IMG/VR virus record: IMGVR_UViG_3300010222_000011
Span: 1 to 34,055 of that record
Source: a virus
Taxonomy: Duplodnaviria > Caudoviricetes
Strand: one strand, 5' to 3'
DNA length: 34,055 nucleotides
Shown here in pieces: positions 6,074 to 24,583 of the stretch. Under the pieces are notes generated by a model. The model saw only the letters and a list, made by a program, of their open reading frames with translations. It did no database searches and was not told the origin of the DNA. Each line of letters opens with the position of its first letter. Within the stretch, counting starts at the first letter, position 1. The position numbers were made by a program, and so were the translations under genes.

Positions 6074-7321
6074 TTAGAGGGTTGCACCGTAATCTTTGAG
6101 ATGTCTGACAAAATTCCCTTCCGATTTCTCAATCAAGGCGCCGAACTCTGCCAGTGCCATGTCTTCTGATAATCCGTCTTTGCTGAGCGGGACCATGGAC
6201 ATAGGCATCAAGGATCTGAACCGTGCGGTTCTTGTCGACATAACAAATACATCCGTTTTAGATCCGGCGTTGTATGTTGTGCCGTTTCCTTGGTCTGTGT
6301 AACTGTCAACGTTGTGATCTGTTAGGACCGGTGCCTCAGCAATATTCAACTGCTGCAAACCGACATCTACTGTACTGGTTTCAGGGTCGGTTGTAACGTT
6401 GTCGAAGTCTGCTTCGTTCTCCAGTTTGTCGTAGAACGATCCACTGGTCACAACTACAATGTTTGCAGGGTTCACGTTCTCTTCATCGATCAGTTGCCGG
6501 ACCTCCGTCTTAATATCTTTCACAAAACCACTGGATACACCACTTTTGTCTACGTCGTTACCCTGGCTGGCTGCGTACTGCGCTAATCCTTGGAAGCCTT
6601 CGGCGTCACCGATGAATCCTGTCTGGGTGTCCTGGCTTGGATCACCGTAAAGAATTTGCTGGGCCTTCCTCTGTGTATGCTCAGCAACTCTCTCACCTAA
6701 AGTGGTATCTTCTAGGTTCATGTAATGCGCTGCCGCTTCCTGTGAAAAGTCTGAGATGGCTAAGCGGTCGGCGAAGATTGTCATATCGACCTCGGACTTA
6801 CTGAAAGTAATATCGCTTTCAGTATTGTTTTTGAGGTCGACTGCATCGCTTTCGGAAACGTATCCTATCGGATCATCCCGGTCACTGACAACGTTGTAAA
6901 CAGCTTTGTATCCTTCCTGTCCTTCCTCATCGATCAGGTTGACTAATTCGCTGTTCTGTTTCTCAATGCTGACAATTTCAGGGTCAAACACCAGCGGTGT
7001 ATAAGCCTGGGTGGCTCCTGCGTCCATTGTCTTCGAATCCATTTCTTCTCCGTTCTGAAGCTTTTGGATATGCTTAACAGCACGTCCTTCAAAGTCCTCT
7101 ACGTCGAATTCGTCGCTGTTTTTGATTTTTCTCCTTGATTTTTCTGTAAGTTCTCCGTCCCGGTTAACTTCTACAAGTCTTTTGATTGGAGGGGTTCTTT
7201 CTTTCCCGCCGTCTGTGTAGCCGGCAGGCCATCCCTGGTCCTCCCATGCTTTTTCAAAGACTTGTTTTGCTGAACCGGATCGTCTACCGATTTTTTGTAG
7301 TGTAAGCGTGTTAGTTGTCAT
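6074..7321 (-). CDS. Major capsid protein (HK97 fold), 415 aa
   Basis: Follows the prohead protease. Size and motifs fit (TPLVFDPEIV, ILYGD..GFQGL, EFGALI), and a strong terminator follows. Confidence 0.88.
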   Translation of the reverse strand: MTTNTLTLQKIGRRSGSAKQVFEKAWEDQGWPAGYTDGGKERTPPIKRLVEVNRDGELTEKSRRKIKNSDEFDVEDFEGRAVKHIQKLQNGEEMDSKTMDAGATQAYTPLVFDPEIVSIEKQNSELVNLIDEEGQEGYKAVYNVVSDRDDPIGYVSESDAVDLKNNTESDITFSKSEVDMTIFADRLAISDFSQEAAAHYMNLEDTTLGERVAEHTQRKAQQILYGDPSQDTQTGFIGDAEGFQGLAQYAASQGNDVDKSGVSSGFVKDIKTEVRQLIDEENVNPANIVVVTSGSFYDKLENEADFDNVTTDPETSTVDVGLQQLNIAEAPVLTDHNVDSYTDQGNGTTYNAGSKTDVFVMSTRTARFRSLMPMSMVPLSKDGLSEDMALAEFGALIEKSEGNFVRHLKDYGATL

Positions 7322-9106: not shown

Positions 9107-9568
9107 TTAAACGCTTAGTTCTGCGGTTTTCTCCGCCTCCCTGATTTTCTGTCTGATACGGTTTCTCTTGTTTGAAGCAGTTCCGTACCCTATATTCATT
9201 TCATCGGCCGCTTCTTGGACTGTGTACCCGAGTTTTTCTGTTAAAATATAGACTTTGGCTTCTTTTTTCGCTAATCTAGTATTTTCTTCTAATTCTTTAA
9301 TACTGTTTTCATCAAAATTATCTACATCCTGTTTTTCCTTCAAATATTCTTCTCTATTTAATTCAGGAGAATATTTCTTTATCAGCTCTTTTTCTCTTTG
9401 TTTTCTAGTACTAGCATTCTTGATCATTTCAGTCTTTACATCTACAGTATCTCTTGCAGTTATAATATGCTGTCTTAAACGCCTCTTAACGTTCTCAGAG
9501 CTCCCGATATAGATAATTTCTTCATCTTCTATAATCTTATAGATGCCTGCCTTATTTGGAAAACTCAC
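9107..9568 (-). CDS. GIY-YIG nuclease domain fused to a C-terminal HTH, 153 aa
   Basis: GIYKI..IYIGSS..VKRRLRQH..E...IKKYSPELN, followed by the HTH TVQEAADEMNIGYGTASN. Confidence 0.88.
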   Translation of the reverse strand: MSFPNKAGIYKIIEDEEIIYIGSSENVKRRLRQHIITARDTVDVKTEMIKNASTRKQREKELIKKYSPELNREEYLKEKQDVDNFDENSIKELEENTRLAKKEAKVYILTEKLGYTVQEAADEMNIGYGTASNKRNRIRQKIREAEKTAELSV

Positions 9569-9882: not shown

Positions 9883-10130
9883 TATTCTACCACCTCCTTG
9901 ACTTTCTCCACAGCTTCCTCACGGCTTTCAAACTCGCCGATTCGATGTTTGATCATCCAAGGATCGTTGTCTGTTCCGCCTGTCATTGAGACAATCCAGT
10001 CTTCTACTCCTCGGCTTGCACCGACTGTGATACCTGATTTTTCTGTGAAGTCGACTGCGACTTCGAATACTTTTTCGTTGTTTTTGAGAACTTCTGCGTT
10101 TTCGTTTTCAAGTTGCATGTTCTTTGTCAT
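9882..10130 (-). CDS. 82-aa hypothetical protein (start MTKNMQ)
   Basis: The ATG lies just after the conserved GAAGGTAG leader; the longer track start runs into the promoter. Confidence 0.7.
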   Translation of the reverse strand: MTKNMQLENENAEVLKNNEKVFEVAVDFTEKSGITVGASRGVEDWIVSMTGGTDNDPWMIKHRIGEFESREEAVEKVKEVVE

Positions 10131-10134
10131 GGTC

Positions 10135-10182
10135 TTTCTACCTTCTATACTTATATTATACCTTAACACTTATAAAGGCTTC
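10135..10182 (-). promoter_or_regulatory. Conserved early-type archaeal promoter, copy 1
   Basis: Minus TTTATAAG (10176-10169), then about 20 nt, then TATAGAAGGTAGAAA. Same layout as at 17.36 and 21.82 kb. Confidence 0.75.
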
Positions 10183-10243
10183 CCAAATAAGAATGTTTTA
10201 TCCCAAAATCTAATATATCTAATAGGGAAAAATCAAAGACAAT

Positions 10244-13764: not shown

Positions 13765-14037
13765 TTACTCGGTCTCTTTTTCTATGTTTTTAGCGAACTC
13801 GATAAGCTTTTCATTTACTTCTTCCTTAGGTAGGTTAACACTGTTTATTTGCTGTGTTTTTCGTTCTTTGTAATTGCATTCCTGGCATTTTCTGATCTTC
13901 CTAGTGAAAATTTTACAGCCTTCAGAACAAAGTTTGGGAGTTACAGTAATTGATTTTTCATGAAATTTGTATGCTGGTTTCCAATCTCCTAAATGATGCG
14001 TTCTCTTGTTTTTCAATCCTAGTTTTTCCAAAATCAT
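13765..14037 (-). CDS. Cys-containing basic protein, 90 aa
   Basis: CSEGC...CQEC; ATGA coupling. Confidence 0.6.
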   Translation of the reverse strand: MILEKLGLKNKRTHHLGDWKPAYKFHEKSITVTPKLCSEGCKIFTRKIRKCQECNYKERKTQQINSVNLPKEEVNEKLIEFAKNIEKETE

Positions 14038-14366
14038 TTTTCCACCTCTCCAAGTTTAACAACTTTATAGAAATAAAGAACATAAGGCATACATCCTTGA
14101 TGATTAACAACTTCCTGCCTCCAATCATCTGGCATATCAAAACCAGATAAATCATAATAATTTCTGAACATATCTTGTTTTGCCAGTGACTCTTTAGTTT
14201 TTCTAACTTCTTTGATCTCTGCCTCAAATAATTTAGGTCCTGTTCTTGTTCCTCTCACCCAAACTTTTTCTCCTTCTTTTTTAGCATTGGTTCTGGCTGT
14301 CCAGACTTTGCCTTTGACACTTAGCTGAGAAAGCGCCGGTTCACTAGAGAAAACCATTGGTTTCAT
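14034..14366 (-). CDS. ASCH/PUA-like domain protein, paralog B, 110 aa
   Basis: F......GKVWTAR...GE.VWV...G...AEI..V...SGF....W pattern; aligns with 16550..16873. Confidence 0.6.
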   Translation of the reverse strand: MKPMVFSSEPALSQLSVKGKVWTARTNAKKEGEKVWVRGTRTGPKLFEAEIKEVRKTKESLAKQDMFRNYYDLSGFDMPDDWRQEVVNHQGCMPYVLYFYKVVKLGEVEK

Positions 14367-16221: not shown

Positions 16222-16562
16222 TGTTTTTTGGTCCACATCTTATGCGTTGTGATTATTTCAATGATCCCTCTTTCTTTAATATTGTAATAATAATAGACAT
16301 CGTTTTCGTCATCCAATTTCCTGGTTTCCAATGCTTGAAGTACAGGGTTCTCCTTCAAGTAAATGTTGTATCCGCCTCTATCACTTCTAGCGGTCAGAGA
16401 ATAGTTTTTACTGTAACCGAGTTCTCTTAATTTGTTGCTTAATGCACGGCTTGGATAGCTGTAGTTGTATTCTTCCGCTATTTCCTTGACTGTCTTGTTT
16501 TTGTCTAGTTCTTTCTCTAACTGTTCCAAACTTATCTTTGATTTACCTGTCATTCTATCCAC
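16218..16562 (-). CDS. HTH protein with a possible AbrB-like C-terminus, 114 aa
   Basis: KTVKEIAEEYNYSYPSRALSNKLRELG. Confidence 0.6.
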   Translation of the reverse strand: MDRMTGKSKISLEQLEKELDKNKTVKEIAEEYNYSYPSRALSNKLRELGYSKNYSLTARSDRGGYNIYLKENPVLQALETRKLDDENDVYYYYNIKERGIIEIITTHKMWTKKQ

Positions 16563-16873
16563 CTTGCATTAAGATAGAGGATCCATCCGTCTTTGATGTG
16601 GCCGTGCATTTCTATTATACGGTCGTACCATTCATGGGCATGAGTAAATCCTGTAGGCATTTCACCAAACGATTTCTGCAACCTGTAAATATTGTCTTTG
16701 CTTATACGCACCGCTTTAAACAGATCGGCTTCACCTACTTTAGGACCTGCTCTTGCTCTTTTTACCCAGAATTCTTGATCACTCGGTAGTTCACCTGTCC
16801 TGTATGTAGCGATTTCTCCTTTGTTTTTGAATGCTTTGAATACGTTGTCTTCTTGGAAAATAATCGGTTTCAT
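16550..16873 (-). CDS. ASCH/PUA-like domain protein, paralog A, 107 aa
   Basis: MKPIIF...GEIATYR...WVKRARAGPK...TGF....W; clear paralog of 14034..14366. Confidence 0.6.
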   Translation of the reverse strand: MKPIIFQEDNVFKAFKNKGEIATYRTGELPSDQEFWVKRARAGPKVGEADLFKAVRISKDNIYRLQKSFGEMPTGFTHAHEWYDRIIEMHGHIKDGWILYLNARWIE

Positions 16874-17322: not shown

Positions 17323-17330
17323 TGTGTCTT

Positions 17331-17381
17331 TTCACCTTCTATACTTACATGGACACGCATTACTTATAAACATTTTCATTG
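17331..17381 (-). promoter_or_regulatory. Conserved early-type archaeal promoter, copy 2
   Basis: Minus CAATGAAAATG-TTTATAAG-TAATG, about 20 nt, then TATAGAAGGTGA; 24 bp identical to 21813-21836. Confidence 0.8.
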
Positions 17382-19295: not shown

Positions 19296-19462
19296 TTTTT
19301 ATCATCTTCTCCCATCATTAGTTGTACTGCTTGTTTCTCCGGCTGCAACAAATCCTTCACGTTTCTAATCATTGGATCCTCCAGTAATGGGCCGTCTTGA
19401 ACTAAGTATTTTTCATCGTTAACCGTTGCTATTTCATTGTATACATTACTGTAATCACTCAT
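19292..19462 (-). CDS. 56-aa hypothetical protein (not in track)
   Basis: MSDYSNVYNEIATVNDEKY...; ATGA overlaps at both ends. Confidence 0.65.
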   Translation of the reverse strand: MSDYSNVYNEIATVNDEKYLVQDGPLLEDPMIRNVKDLLQPEKQAVQLMMGEDDKK

Positions 19463-20202
19463 ACGGTTTCTGCACCGACTTTTTCTTTGTCTTTGAGGCA
19501 GTGTTTTAACTGTTGCTCCGCATCTTCGCTGAGTTTGTACTTAACGTATTTCCCGTTGCGCTTGCTTTCAAAATCCAGTTTTTCACGTAACTCGGAGACA
19601 CGGCTCCTCAACGCCTTAACTTTTTCCGGTTTCCCTATTTTCTCAGCTAAATCACTGTATGATACAAAACCGTCAAGCTCTATGAAAGCAGAAAGGATTT
19701 TTTCCTCGTTCTCATTGAAACGTGCATCATCAATTACATTGGCAACATCCTGCTGCATTTCCACTGCTCCAGAAACACTGTACAACTTTTTCCCGTTCTC
19801 CATCTTTGTATCCAGCAGGTCTTCTTTCTCCAGTTTCTCCACATATTCCTGTAAAGCCATTGGTGCCTCACCCAGTTTATCAGCCAAATCATCTAAAGAA
19901 AGAAACTCGTCTTCCTCAAGAAAAGCCCACAAAACTGTTTCCTCCTTATCAGGGCTGAACGGATTAACGTACTCCAACTGGTTATAAGGCGGTTTAAACT
20001 CGTTTATCAAATGCTTCTCCATTAACTCCCGGATATTTTTCTCTGTTACAACCTCGAACGTGGCTTCATCCCACAACGGTTTGTCATGCGAGGTCACTCT
20101 TTTCCTTAGGCTGGATGCCCGGCCGATGTAAACCAGTTTGAGGTCGCCGCCGGCTTTCCGGCTGTAAAGTTTGTAGATTCCGGGCCGGTCAGGGACGTGC
20201 AT
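19459..20202 (-). CDS. GIY-YIG nuclease with two tandem winged-helix domains, about 247 aa
   Basis: PGIYKL...VYIGRA..LRKRV..H...E..LI...KPPYN, then two wHTH repeats (LSLDDLADKLG; VSYSDLAEKIG). Confidence 0.85.
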   Translation of the reverse strand: MHVPDRPGIYKLYSRKAGGDLKLVYIGRASSLRKRVTSHDKPLWDEATFEVVTEKNIRELMEKHLINEFKPPYNQLEYVNPFSPDKEETVLWAFLEEDEFLSLDDLADKLGEAPMALQEYVEKLEKEDLLDTKMENGKKLYSVSGAVEMQQDVANVIDDARFNENEEKILSAFIELDGFVSYSDLAEKIGKPEKVKALRSRVSELREKLDFESKRNGKYVKYKLSEDAEQQLKHCLKDKEKVGAETV

Positions 20203-20206
20203 TGCG

Positions 20207-20542
20207 TTACGCCTGCTCTGCATCACAGTTTTTATCACCTTTCTTGTTATAATGTTCTGGATTTAGGTCGTAGAAAGTATGCCTATCAAGTCTCTCAACT
20301 AATTTTGGGAAGTCAAGTAAATACCTTGATTTCCGGTTTTGATGCACTGTAATAGGTAGAACAGCAAACCTTCTGTCAAGTTCATTTTGGGTTACTTCCT
20401 CGTATTCTGTGTGAGTTCCATCAGTTACCTTGTACTCCCAGTCTTTGGTCTCCATGTTGAACTTGTAAGCAGAGACTTCGCAGATTTCTTGTTTTTCTCT
20501 ATCGTAGATCAGTCTACCTCTCCGTACAGGATTATCTGTCAT
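20207..20542 (-). CDS. Hypothetical protein, about 111 aa
   Basis: ATGA coupling; beta-rich N-terminus. Confidence 0.6.
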   Translation of the reverse strand: MTDNPVRRGRLIYDREKQEICEVSAYKFNMETKDWEYKVTDGTHTEYEEVTQNELDRRFAVLPITVHQNRKSRYLLDFPKLVERLDRHTFYDLNPEHYNKKGDKNCDAEQA

Positions 20543-21774: not shown

Positions 21775-21783
21775 AAACTAGTG

Positions 21784-21836
21784 TTCTACCTTCTATATCA
21801 TACATTGGTATACATTACTTATAAACATTTTCATTG
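21784..21836 (-). promoter_or_regulatory. Conserved early-type archaeal promoter, copy 3
   Basis: Minus CAATGAAAATGTTTATAAGTAATG, about 20 nt, then TATAGAAGGTAGAA. Confidence 0.8.
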
Positions 21837-22242: not shown

Positions 22243-22349
22243 CTATACTCTATCTATTTCCTTTACTCGCCGATAAAGGGCGAAACCCAATCAATAATTA
22301 GTCTATAAGCTTTAAAAAAGAAAGGAAAACTTGTGGGGAGGGGTAGACC

Positions 22350-22495
22350 AAAAAAATATTTGAGGAGAATATGTAGGGGGAGAATTTAGAAGAGCGCCCA
22401 ATCCCCCCTCAAATAGGCCCGGTATAAAGACCTGCGGCGCTTGAAGGTAGAAAAAACCAGTGTTCTGGAGACACTTGCGTTTTTTCCTCTAAAAG
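22350..22495 (-). ncRNA. Putative structured (pseudoknotted) small RNA, about 145 nt
   Basis: TATA at 22517-26, five helices with G-U pairs favouring the minus strand, and a U7 end at 22356-50; no ORF. Confidence 0.6.
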
Positions 22496-22553
22496 CTGGG
22501 CTTGAATAGACCAACTTCTATAAAAACAAATATTACCAGCCAATCCTAAAAAA

Positions 22554-23117
22554 CTAATGGTTATTCAACGCCTGACGAGTCGCACGATCACAAACCCGTA
22601 AATCCACACGCCGACTCGTCTTATAGATAGAATCCTCCGTCTTATCCAAATCCTCATCATGTTCATACTCGGGGAACAAGTTATGCAGAACTTCATGATT
22701 ACATACCGTATCAAACTGTGTAGCCGTCAAACCCGTCTCAACAAAAATCGTGTTATTATGAGTAAAAGTTTTGCCCATAACATTTCTCCCACTTTGTGCC
22801 TTTACCTGGTCTACCACATGAAACCGGTAAACACCTGATGAAAAGTTCTTCTCCTGTGCAACAATCCGGCTGTTATTGTAGGGTTCTCCAAGAATGTTTC
22901 TAGCGTTCTCCGAGCCCTCACTGTAGCCCTGCCGGTAGCCATCATTCCATTGCTGAGACTTTATCTCCTGCCGTATCTCTTTTTTCTCTTCAAGATGATT
23001 CTGTTTCATCTCCTGTATCTGCTCGGTGTGCTCCGCCTGAATACTATGGAATACGCCTAAGAAACCTATAATTATCAACGTGTTTAGAATTATCTGTAAA
23101 ACAATGAGTCGTCTCAA
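22554..23117 (-). CDS. Membrane-anchored zincin-like metallopeptidase, 187 aa
   Basis: N-terminal TM helix, coiled coil, GYRQGYSEG, then GKTF...IFV...HEVLH (HExxH). Confidence 0.7.
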   Translation of the reverse strand: MRRLIVLQIILNTLIIIGFLGVFHSIQAEHTEQIQEMKQNHLEEKKEIRQEIKSQQWNDGYRQGYSEGSENARNILGEPYNNSRIVAQEKNFSSGVYRFHVVDQVKAQSGRNVMGKTFTHNNTIFVETGLTATQFDTVCNHEVLHNLFPEYEHDEDLDKTEDSIYKTSRRVDLRVCDRATRQALNNH

Positions 23118-23392
23118 TTTTCAACAGGCTCCTTATCATATTCTTCTTCCTTTGATTTTTCATTCTGCATATTCCGGAGCTGTTTCTTAACATCCTCCGG
23201 CAGTTTTACAATCTTCCAAGTACCTGGAGCAGTCCTCTCCACCAAATCATGTAGTTCAAAAGTTTGGATCGCCGATTTGGCAGAACTTTTTCCGCTGTAC
23301 ATTCTCTCAGCAAAACTCAAAGTAATCACACCATTATTCTTCTTCACAGCCATCAACAAAAGATTGGACTGTTTCTCAGAAAGACCTGTCAT
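23114..23392 (-). CDS. Winged-helix protein, 92 aa
   Basis: LSEKQ..LL...ITLSFAERMYS..SAKSAIQTFE..LVER..G.W. Confidence 0.65.
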   Translation of the reverse strand: MTGLSEKQSNLLLMAVKKNNGVITLSFAERMYSGKSSAKSAIQTFELHDLVERTAPGTWKIVKLPEDVKKQLRNMQNEKSKEEEYDKEPVEN

Positions 23393-23922
23393 CGCAGCCT
23401 CTCCACCTTCTCATCATACCCTCGGTTTTCAGCTTCTTCTAACAGTTGCTTCTTGAATCTAGGTCTCGGAACCGTATCAAAATTCTTCTTATACTTCTTG
23501 TATCTCCCATCAAACCATCTTTTGAACCTTGACTCAACCTCCGCTGGATCACTCTCGCTTCTACGAACCATGATCATTTCAACTGTATTGTCCCAGAACT
23601 CCTTATCATCAACATCCCTAATCTTCTCTTGGGACTCTTCCTCTGTCTCTACTTCAATCTCTTCAATTTCTGCCTTAAGACCTTTCCTTTGGATCTTCAA
23701 CTGATCTATTTCATCTTCCAGTTTCTCAATCCTGCTATCCAAAAGTTCTCTTTTGGCTTCCAACTTGGTTTTGTCATCTCCGTATTTCATAAGCATATCA
23801 CGAAAAAACTCCGATCTTCCTCCATCATAAACTTCATTAATATCGGTTTTCAATTTATCCCAGAGCGATTGGGCTGTTTCATCAAGGCTGATATTCACAC
23901 GGTCAGTCATAAGCCCAATCAC
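23389..23922 (-). CDS. RHH-like domain plus coiled coil protein, about 175 aa
   Basis: RVNISLDE...W..L......GRSEFFRDML, followed by a long heptad region. Confidence 0.7.
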   Translation of the reverse strand: MIGLMTDRVNISLDETAQSLWDKLKTDINEVYDGGRSEFFRDMLMKYGDDKTKLEAKRELLDSRIEKLEDEIDQLKIQRKGLKAEIEEIEVETEEESQEKIRDVDDKEFWDNTVEMIMVRRSESDPAEVESRFKRWFDGRYKKYKKNFDTVPRPRFKKQLLEEAENRGYDEKVERLR

Positions 23923-24038
23923 TCTTTCTCTTCTATTCCTGCAGCTTTTTCAAGCATTTCAAGCCATGTTCTGTCGTTTTTCTCTGATTTAAGTTCTTTG
24001 TGCTTATCGTCGTCCATCGGAATCCGTACTTCCTTCAT
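23919..24038 (-). CDS. 39-aa RHH-like microprotein (not in track)
   Basis: MKEVRIPMDDDKHKELKSEKNDRTWLEMLEKAAGIEEKE; near-leaderless behind TATTTAAA (24062-69); GTGA overlap. Confidence 0.7.
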   Translation of the reverse strand: MKEVRIPMDDDKHKELKSEKNDRTWLEMLEKAAGIEEKE

Positions 24039-24131
24039 GTCTGTGATATGAGTGTGTGTTGTTTAAATAACCTTGTGTACTTTTCATCTGGATAAAAGAC
24101 AAGTATTTATAAACAGAAAAACCTTAAACAG

Positions 24132-24181
24132 TCCCTAGAGGCCAAAGTTAGGCCTCAGCCCCACGATTTCTAGTGGAGGGA
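24132..24181 (+). ncRNA. Putative three-way-junction small RNA element
   Basis: TCCCT/AGGGA closes GAGGCC/GGCCTC and CCAC/GTGG hairpins; TTTATAAA at 24106-13 just upstream. Confidence 0.4.
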
Positions 24182-24210
24182 AGAAAAATTGAACTCCATA
24201 TGTGATCAGG

Positions 24211-24472
24211 CTTGTGTACATACACAACATACATACACAAGGTCACCAACATACTCATTCTCATACAAAAACCTACTTTCATTTATAAAATCCACAAGTA
24301 GTCTTGTGTATTGTGTATGACTACTTATGCAATACAACACAATAGTTTGAAGAAATAGGCTCGAAATTACAAAGTATGCTCTTGAAGTTTAAACTGAATA
24401 ACAAAACAAATCTTTTGTTTCAAGATATAATACAAAAAACCGAATCTTTGTTTGATACTATAATACAAAAAC
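24211..24472. repeat. Iteron/operator array, candidate replication origin
   Basis: Repeated TTGTGTA/TACACAA, two inverted repeats, and two TTTGT-N13-ACAAA units 33 bp apart; AT-rich. Confidence 0.55.
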
Positions 24473-24583
24473 TAGTTTTTTGATCCGATTAAATACTCTT
24501 GAACCTCAAATTCCTCCCTAGAAATATTAGGATTCCAGTATCAACTTTTTTCGGAAAAACCGGGATCGCAGTACCAGTTTTTT

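Follow-up and report, generated by a model that had tools for sequence, protein, structure and literature searches.

We predict that a non-coding gap in the genome of a tailed virus encodes a small antisense RNA of about 146 nt, which would act in trans to block the translation of the three genes with the strongest promoter motifs, its 3' pseudoknot and U-tract ending and protecting the transcript. We assign this reading a probability of about 0.75. The genome was analysed as the IMG/VR record IMGVR_UViG_3300010222_000011 over its 34,055 nucleotides (hereafter the window). A preliminary description of the gap had proposed a self-contained pseudoknotted RNA gene on the minus strand, with an alternative pairing suggestive of a switch. 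That RNA is probably real, and its meaning probably lies not in the switch but in an antisense seed (22461-22442) that the description missed and that is likely the working part. The real support comes from the relatives of the virus and from the pairing of the seed with gene leaders, not from the fold alone.

The window is a 34-kb tailed-virus record with direct terminal repeats, and its minus strand carries nearly all of its long ORFs. A profile scan of 45 window proteins recognised portal, head, neck and tail genes; no integrase and no replication protein was recognised among these 45. The terminase has 36 further homologs (41-75% identity), which include the environmental halophage eHP-35 and proteins in Nanohaloarchaea MAGs. 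Genomes of Nanohaloarchaeota contain two contigs related to the window, and the winged-helix gene upstream of the gap has chromosomal homologs, in non-viral surroundings, in 6 of 70 Nanohaloarchaeota genomes (E<1e-8). The host of the virus is therefore likely a nanohaloarchaeon. The reads of one DNA run, possibly the source of the record, exhibited no sequence variants. Elsewhere in the window, two genes on the minus strand combine GIY-YIG and helix-turn-helix domains (9107-9568 and 19459-20238). Two further minus-strand genes (16550-16873 and 14034-14366) are likely paralogs, because both of their proteins match one and the same gene of a related virus, G038.

The features of the predicted RNA, its targets and its neighbours are listed in Table 1. 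The five helices drawn in the preliminary description, the 13-bp helix that crosses the others, the alternative partner of the G-run, the U7 tract and the TTTTTATAG motif were all found at the positions given there. The non-canonical pairs had been described as mostly G-U on the minus strand; this holds for 6 of the 6 non-Watson-Crick pairs. When both strands of the 13-bp helix are blocked, ViennaRNA folds the remainder into P1-P4 of that description. P1 is weak, forming only once the crossing helix is set. The probability that the toehold is unpaired is 0.99-1.0 with the pseudoknot set and 0.56-0.96 in the free nested ensemble. A 12-nt direct repeat (22495-22506 and 22434-22445, 83% identical) offers the 5' end of the RNA as a second possible partner of the S1 3' strand. 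The extra pyrimidine tract could possibly take part in a triple helix, which would need runs of protonated C; a parallel match of this tract to the purine strand is present in the window and in the related virus L034 and absent in L036 and G038.

Table 1. Coordinates of the predicted RNA, its parts, its putative targets and the adjacent genes in the window
Feature	Position	Strand	Remarks
Predicted small antisense RNA	22350-22497	-	about 146 nt; 5' end inferred
T-rich TATA-like motif TTTTTATAG	22518-22526	-	without purine BRE
P1 5' strand	22487-22493	-	pairs with 22391-22385; 6 Watson-Crick + 1 G-U
P2 hairpin	22450-22486	-	8 + 5 pairs; 3' arm is the distal part of the seed
Antisense seed	22442-22461	-	complementary to leaders of genes 21774, 10130 and 17322
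Single-stranded toehold	22442-22448	-	complementary to SD-containing part of target leaders
Pseudoknot stem S1, 5' strand	22436-22441	-	P3 of the preliminary description; pairs with 22398-22393; 6 Watson-Crick
S1, 3' strand	22393-22398	-	
P4 hairpin inside pseudoknot loop 1	22415-22433	-	4 Watson-Crick + 2 G-U
Pseudoknot stem S2, 5' strand	22403-22415	-	13-bp crossing helix; 10 Watson-Crick + 3 G-U
S2, 3' strand	22357-22369	-	
Loop-3 pyrimidine tract	22375-22384	-	alternative partner of the G-run
U7 tract	22350-22356	-	predicted 3' end
BRE-TATA-like motif of downstream 120-aa gene	22301-22314	-	separate from the RNA
Target site 1	21777-21793	-	leader (-19 to -3) of first early gene 21774-21583, 63 aa, helical
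BRE-TATA promoter motif, target 1	21818-21832	-	
Target site 2	17326-17339	-	leader of 41-aa cysteine-motif gene 17322-17197
BRE-TATA promoter motif, target 2	17363-17377	-	24-nt near-copy of target 1 promoter
Target site 3	10130-10145	-	leader of 82-aa gene 10130-9882; best partner of the seed among gene starts
BRE-TATA promoter motif, target 3	10169-10184	-	
Winged-helix gene, MarR/Z-alpha-like fold	23114-23392	-	weak matches, none below E 0.001; upstream of the RNA
Putative ribbon-helix-helix regulator	23389-23922	-	N-terminus by eye; no profile hit

The description of the gap as free of ORFs stands for ORFs of at least 60 aa over 22243-22553, although two minus-strand frames with TTG starts (42 and 44 codons) overlap it. 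A covariance scan against Rfam, which had been proposed as a check, matched no family (best hit ylbH on the opposite strand, 12.4 bits against a cut-off of 50, E = 3.5), and ARAGORN found 0 tRNA or tmRNA genes. The element was thus rightly set apart from tRNA, SRP, RNase P and known ribozymes. A scan for sigma-70 promoters and terminators was empty, and it is inapplicable to archaea. The notion of a self-contained gene with its own TATA box fared less well. The TTTTTATAG motif is present, but it lacks the purine-rich BRE typical of the clear promoters of this virus and, in a rough matrix, scores at most 1.6 against 10-12 for them. An own promoter is therefore uncertain. The motif may act as a weak promoter or else terminate the operon that lies upstream, and the RNA may be released from the 3' end of that operon instead. 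It is not the leader of the downstream 120-aa gene, because that gene has a promoter-like motif of its own.

Five other viruses cover the region: L034 (record G002), L036, L040, L048 and G038:C2 (L065/L068). They were found by terminase-based locus searches and by a search with the first early gene; L049 was left out, being too distant for its gap to be placed. All six viruses share the family of the small helical gene that opens the early cluster (21774-21583 in the window), with a non-coding gap in front of it. This gap follows the winged-helix gene in L034, L036 and L048 as in the window, and in G038 the regulator operon points the opposite way from the element. No such gap lies behind the chromosomal winged-helix homologs of Nanohaloarchaeota. 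Searches with the element itself identified no relative. A helix-pattern search of viral contigs returned 31 loci, none of them related; blastn against phages gave one 22-nt match only; blastn and nhmmer against 14 terminase loci found only the identical record L035; and the G001 and G002 records exhibited no sequence match to the element. A pattern common to L034 and L036 returned L034 itself and one apparent chance match in coding sequence. Locus searches with a single protein (the upstream gene or the terminase) gave no relatives, and capsid-based searches no additional locus spanning the gap. What is conserved in this putative RNA family is its logic alone, and for that reason searches by sequence and covariance miss it. 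A MAFFT alignment of three of the RNAs was meaningless. The RNAs do not align by sequence, so that family membership rests on position, seed logic and architecture.

Compared with the remainder of the same genome, each gap has its longest complementary matches at gene starts. A seed of 10-20 nt, complementary to the SD/start region of the gene that opens the early cluster, lies in each of the six gaps, and the seed sequences differ among the viruses. In a matrix of the six gaps, read on both strands, against the six leaders, the own sense-strand gap was the best of 12 in 6 of 6 columns. Dinucleotide-shuffled gaps did as well against the own leader in 0/300 cases for the window and in 4/300, 0/186, 0/300, 0/300 and 2/300 cases for the others. 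Equal-length stretches from elsewhere in the same virus did as well in 2/287, 3/247, 0/41, 1/138, 1/132 and 8/270 cases; in three viruses the best competing stretch is the antisense strand of a second target leader. The leader window had been widened from +12 to +18 after L040 was seen to pair in codons 1-6, and the portions of the gap used for L040 (250 of 729 bases) and G038 (220 of 393) were chosen after inspection. By an alignment score with the leader taken to +12, the own pair was the best in 5 of 6 columns, and the shuffles that were as good numbered 42 (window), 3, 2, 176 (L040), 0 and 1 of 500. Unconstrained whole-gap RNAduplex, which is too noisy to rank targets, placed the first early gene only at 124/220, 12/233, 34/128, 7/94 and 6/175. 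The match of the window itself is among the weakest, with 10 perfect pairs: with the whole gap as query its first early gene ranks 27th of 246, and a search of the whole genome with the seed places at least nine matches ahead of the one to this gene.

In every case the seed is complementary to the mRNA strand, over a region centred on SD/AUG. The 16S tail of the host, GGAUCACCUCCA in 4 of the 5 genomes searched, places the SD within the part of the leader covered by the seed; part of each seed is plain anti-SD. The complementarity is virus-specific and directed to the SD/start regions on the mRNA strand. RNA-mRNA pairing was better than its strand-flipped counterpart in 11 of 15 pairs, worse in 1 and tied in 3. 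RNA that uses G-U pairs should give this outcome, although the comparison is biased by U-rich seeds meeting G-rich leaders. The seed of the window complements mRNA leaders in the minus reading only (-20.5 vs -14.5 kcal/mol), which settles the strand as minus, as had been proposed. In the predicted folds each seed has an exposed part in a loop or linker. L036 and G038 exhibit the layout of the window (hairpin arm, short linker, pseudoknot), and the seed of L034 and L048 lies in a loop or tail.

With the seed fixed, genes 10130, 21774 and 17322 of the window take ranks 1, 2 and 3-4 among 246 ATG windows. Similarly, two promoter-proximal leaders rank 1 and 2 of 276 in L034, two leaders rank 1 and 2 of 116 in L048, and two rank 1 and 3 of 78 in L036, where all three of the best genome-wide seed matches are leaders. 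The second leaders of L040 and G038 are not within the top six partners of their seeds. All 15 leaders examined follow a BRE-TATA-like motif. A promoter pattern blind to the leaders, although written after these promoters had been seen, finds four sites in the window, and the three of them with a gene behind are exactly those of 21774, 17322 and 10130. Target leaders in one virus are near-copies of one cassette and therefore do not constitute independent evidence for the seed. The three window leaders differ outside the part covered by the seed; in two of them the duplex is extended, each time differently. After opening costs, the predicted net binding is -2.8, -10.3 and -8.2 kcal/mol for the three window targets. 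The leaders indicate what the seed would control: the first genes behind the strongest host-type promoter motifs, resembling immediate-early genes, where "early" is judged from promoter strength and position. The target proteins had no Pfam match above the cut-off and no useful Atlas match. The leader of the winged-helix gene matches the seed less well (rank 5 of 246).

The same matches might be read at the level of DNA. The leader motif would then be an operator of the winged-helix or ribbon-helix-helix protein, the seed an inverted copy of it, and the helices the terminator of the regulator operon. The target leaders are indeed duplicated promoter cassettes, the regulator genes adjoin the RNA gap, the TTTTTATAG TATA motif is weak, and a helix followed immediately by a U-run is terminator-like. 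We nevertheless consider this reading unlikely. The copy in the gap is antisense in 6 of 6 viruses, and it covers SD/AUG, including coding sequence in L036, L040 and L048, not the TATA region; no TATA motif stands at the corresponding distance from the inverted copies. The extensions of the duplex use G-U pairs, and a different inverted-repeat motif is already operator-like. Moreover, the G038 element cannot be the 3' UTR of a regulator operon, because that operon points away from it.

Action in cis, as an attenuator or switch, is a very improbable explanation. A read-through transcript would choose between the pseudoknot and the alternative pairing of the G-run, thereby controlling entry into the early operon, and the seed would pair in cis with the first leader. 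The G-run has several possible partners, and target 1 lies on the same strand only 650 nt downstream; yet every target has its own promoter motif, and the second and third targets are 5 and 12 kb distant. The switch suggested in the preliminary description found no support: a comparable second partner is present only in L034, on the other side of the helix, so that the alternative pairing is not conserved.

The combination of a variable, guide-like segment with a pseudoknotted scaffold and several genomic targets also recalls an RNA that serves as scaffold and guide of a protein binding early-promoter DNA or cutting mRNAs. This too has little to recommend it, since no guide-using nuclease family was recognised among the 45 window proteins, the position of the seed in the fold differs among the viruses, and the scaffold sequence is not conserved.

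The fold of the window sequence, taken by itself, is modestly better than shuffled sequences on both strands and is suggestive only. The nested MFE of the minus strand has a z of -1.62 (8/200 shuffles as good), that of the plus strand -1.39 (18/200), and in a scan of the whole window 15 of 1131 minus-strand windows fold equally well after GC correction. A simple pseudoknot folder, written for this analysis and run with shuffled controls, recovered unaided the full structure of the preliminary description (z = -2.44, 4/600 shuffles), and the gain of the pseudoknot over the nested fold was reached in 5/600 shuffles. The comparison with shuffled controls that had been proposed there thus came out modestly in favour of a fold on the minus strand, but the plus strand does equally well in the same folder (z = -3.07, 1/286). 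We also used an H-type descriptor, stricter than the folder and written after the locus and two relatives had been seen. By this descriptor the locus is the first of 43 on the window minus strand, it exceeds all but 2 of 500 whole-gap shuffles (and all 500 if a U-run is demanded), and the best hit on the antisense strand is -19.0 against -36.5 for the locus.

The same gap also folds in the relatives. The L034 pseudoknot is the first of 63 by the descriptor, and the whole-gap shuffles reaching the observed value number, per 500, 2 for the window, 0 for L034, 49 for L036, 47 for L040 and 22 for L048. Among the syntenic gaps, 4 of 5 have a U-run after their best pseudoknot, compared with 2 of 32 among the other gaps; four further loci lacked a gap of 150 nt. 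The pseudoknot of G038 is small and stands in front of a U-rich tail (0/300 shuffles), with bounds chosen by the analyst and a size below the descriptor limits. In L048 and L040 the 3' end is a strong hairpin, and a pseudoknot brings no significant gain. A 3' pseudoknot with a U-run is thus found in the window, L034, L036 and G038, and folding predicts a stable 3' module shared by the six viruses, being a pseudoknot in 4 of 6. In stem S1 of the window, L034 and L036, pairing is kept at variable positions, as judged from three rows aligned by hand and not as a test. These observations support the proposal of a new viral minus-strand structured RNA with a pseudoknot.

It might still be argued that these are chance hairpins in a purine/pyrimidine-skewed spacer, functionless as RNA, given a nested z of only -1.62, a plus strand that folds equally well and the 15 windows of similar quality. 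The virus-specific matching of seed and leader in 6 of 6 viruses and the pseudoknots in the same gap of L034 (0/500 shuffles) and G038 (0/300) make this scarcely credible. Least credible is a replication-primer RNA or a single-stranded origin element beside DNA-binding genes: no replication gene was recognised in the window, iteron-like repeats lie just upstream in L040 and the RNA has a G6 tract, but the G-rich tract is at different ends in different viruses and the complementarity to the leaders would be left unexplained.

We therefore return to the antisense RNA, for which the following course of events is proposed. The minus-strand RNA would arise from the T-rich motif or by release from the upstream regulator operon. 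The 5' hairpin and the 3' H-type pseudoknot are predicted to form, leaving open a toehold of 7 nt. This toehold would pair with the SD part of a leader, and the duplex would grow into the hairpin arm to 10-17 bp; the complementarity is observed, and the binding is predicted from it. Ribosomes would then be excluded, turning off the first gene of each early unit and possibly, by polarity, the whole unit. Such a translational block would follow the example of bacterial and phage antisense RNAs. The purpose would be to hold or turn off the early programme, either in a carrier state with superinfection immunity or in an early-to-late switch; we regard the carrier state and a shut-off within the lytic cycle as equally probable. 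Since the seed differs from virus to virus along with the leaders, silencing would be confined to viruses of the same kind. The pseudoknot would serve as a protective cap, and a host Lsm protein, present in 55 of 70 host genomes, may help the RNA. We propose more tentatively, at slightly less than an even chance, that a programmable RNA repressor is spread across this family of DPANN viruses, in which a scaffold of hairpin, seed and pseudoknot has its seed rewritten together with the leaders of all strong early promoters and confers virus-specific immunity.

Several known systems are comparable. The CI RNA of phage P4 is a small structured immunity RNA that pairs with short complementary stretches in early leaders. 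It lies within the leader that it controls and causes premature termination. In contrast, the window targets each have their own promoter, and the pairing covers SD/AUG. The C4 RNA of P1/P7, according to the published account, occludes the RBS with one loop, derives its phage specificity from another and has a role in immunity (PMC5320573). C4 acts in trans on the mRNAs of its own phage, varies among relatives and is tied to immunity and lysogeny (PMC5320573); the window RNA, too, would be a small RNA acting in trans on the mRNAs of its own virus. C4 is described as an RNA of three stem-loops and two pairing loops that RNase P trims to about 77 nt (PMC5320573), whereas the window RNA, from an archaeal virus, is predicted to have one contiguous seed of toehold plus arm and an H-type pseudoknot end. 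Membership in C4 was rejected: the window has no covariance-model match at the gathering score or at E<=10 and does not exhibit three stem-loops with two loops; four relatives gave no C4 match at E<=1.

The T-ant RNA of PhiH1 is reported as an antisense RNA of a haloarchaeal virus that inactivates the RBS region of an early lytic transcript, in connection with immunity (PMC4284463, PMC6210493). The window RNA resembles it as an archaeal-virus antisense RNA aimed at the ribosome-binding region. T-ant, as reported, acts in cis from the opposite strand of a single target (PMC4284463, PMC6210493), unlike the window RNA, which would act in trans on several partly complementary targets 0.65-12 kb away and is pseudoknotted. 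A cis antisense RNA of the T-ant type was dismissed because the targets (21777-93, 17326-39 and 10130-45) are on the RNA's own strand. Trans-encoded sRNAs of bacteria and archaea are described as having partial complementarity to RBS/start regions, several targets, a structured 3' end with a U-tail and possible help from Hfq/Lsm (PMC3432209). Their features recur here as partial SD/start complementarity to distant mRNAs, co-change of seed and target, and an accessible nucleation region in the predicted folds. Unlike cellular sRNAs, the window RNA is virus-encoded and aimed at the virus's own genes, its seed and target leaders are rewritten together in each virus, and its 3' module is a pseudoknot in 4 of 6. 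We would class it with the antisense repressors of phages; it belongs to no Rfam family and its architecture is new, and the archaeal viruses that carry it are poorly known.

Other classes were rejected. tRNA and tmRNA were discarded on the ARAGORN result (0 genes) and the lack of an Rfam match, and the riboswitches, ribozymes, SRP and RNase P of Rfam gave no covariance-model match. In an HDV-like ribozyme a P3/L3 hairpin links the 5' strand of stem two to the 3' strand of stem one; here the corresponding link is only 1-4 nt. A translational riboswitch sequestering the SD does not fit, as a U-run and a separate promoter follow rather than a start codon and gene. Type III toxin-antitoxin RNAs consist of tandem pseudoknot repeats before a ToxN-like gene, and the window contains neither a tandem unit nor a ToxN-like protein family. 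A telomerase-like core, a group I intron and a frameshift signal were considered and dropped.

Our literature search found neither a trans-acting antisense RNA encoded by an archaeal virus nor any non-coding RNA from a nanohaloarchaeal virus, the precedent being the cis-acting one of PhiH1. In the available text of a preprint on nanohaloarchaeal viruses (10.1101/2025.02.15.638363), the terms non-coding, noncoding and pseudoknot do not occur. The accessible part of PMC7002113 mentions one 266-nt nanohaloarchaeal intergenic RNA, and that of PMC10690425 over ten thousand viral RNA candidates. The sRNA table of the former or the candidate models of the latter could already hold this RNA without a function. 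If the more tentative reading of a programmable repressor is true, no earlier antisense RNA of an archaeal virus would have been both trans-acting and multi-target, nanohaloarchaea with their minimal genomes would support translational control of the sRNA type, and one RNA would be a master switch of the viral life cycle. Most genes of the viruses of DPANN archaea are unannotated, and for the timing or restraint of their lytic genes the finding offers a concrete candidate regulator with predicted targets. The six seed-leader pairs, matching only within a virus, form a built-in natural control, so that the proposal is directly testable by compensatory mutations. Such RNAs might be sought as gaps complementary to several gene leaders in the same virus. 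A toehold seed with a pseudoknot cap at molar salt could suit the design of compact gene silencing in archaea.

The region around the RNA is probably a control module of the virus, in which the RNA would be the repressor of the early programme. The regulator genes are followed on the minus strand by a gene for 187 aa (22554-23117) with an N-terminal hydrophobic helix and an HEXXH motif, possibly encoding a membrane-anchored metalloprotease. Scans against Pfam and PHROG gave no match to it and a search of viral contigs no relative, and it is absent from the gap region of the relatives. A 14-bp helix with a stacking energy of about -28 kcal/mol lies near the start of the putative regulator gene (23800-23945, minus strand). 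A second non-coding gap (23923-24488) is the most stable minus-strand folding region after GC correction. A 7-nt motif occurs 10 times in the genome, counting both orientations, and 6 of these copies lie in this gap; they are likely operators of the regulator operon or an origin.

Further observations concern the relatives. G038:C2 (L068, L069), a closer relative of the window with 62-70% identity in three tail-region proteins, lies in a Nanohaloarchaeota genome bin and is possibly a provirus; it has a second structured gap (L068 13979-14485). A T-rich segment of 30 nt upstream of the RNAs is 87% identical between L036 (1800-1828) and L040 (1300-1329; E = 1e-4), and may be a promoter or terminator element at the 5' side of the RNA. 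L040 also exhibits, by eye, many iteron-like copies of a short repeat (840-1290) after a coiled-coil gene and before the structured region. Finally, at 6254-6413 (minus strand) L040 carries a tRNA-like sequence with long inserts in the D- and anticodon-arms (Rfam tRNA, 31.3 bits), on the strand opposite to the viral genes.
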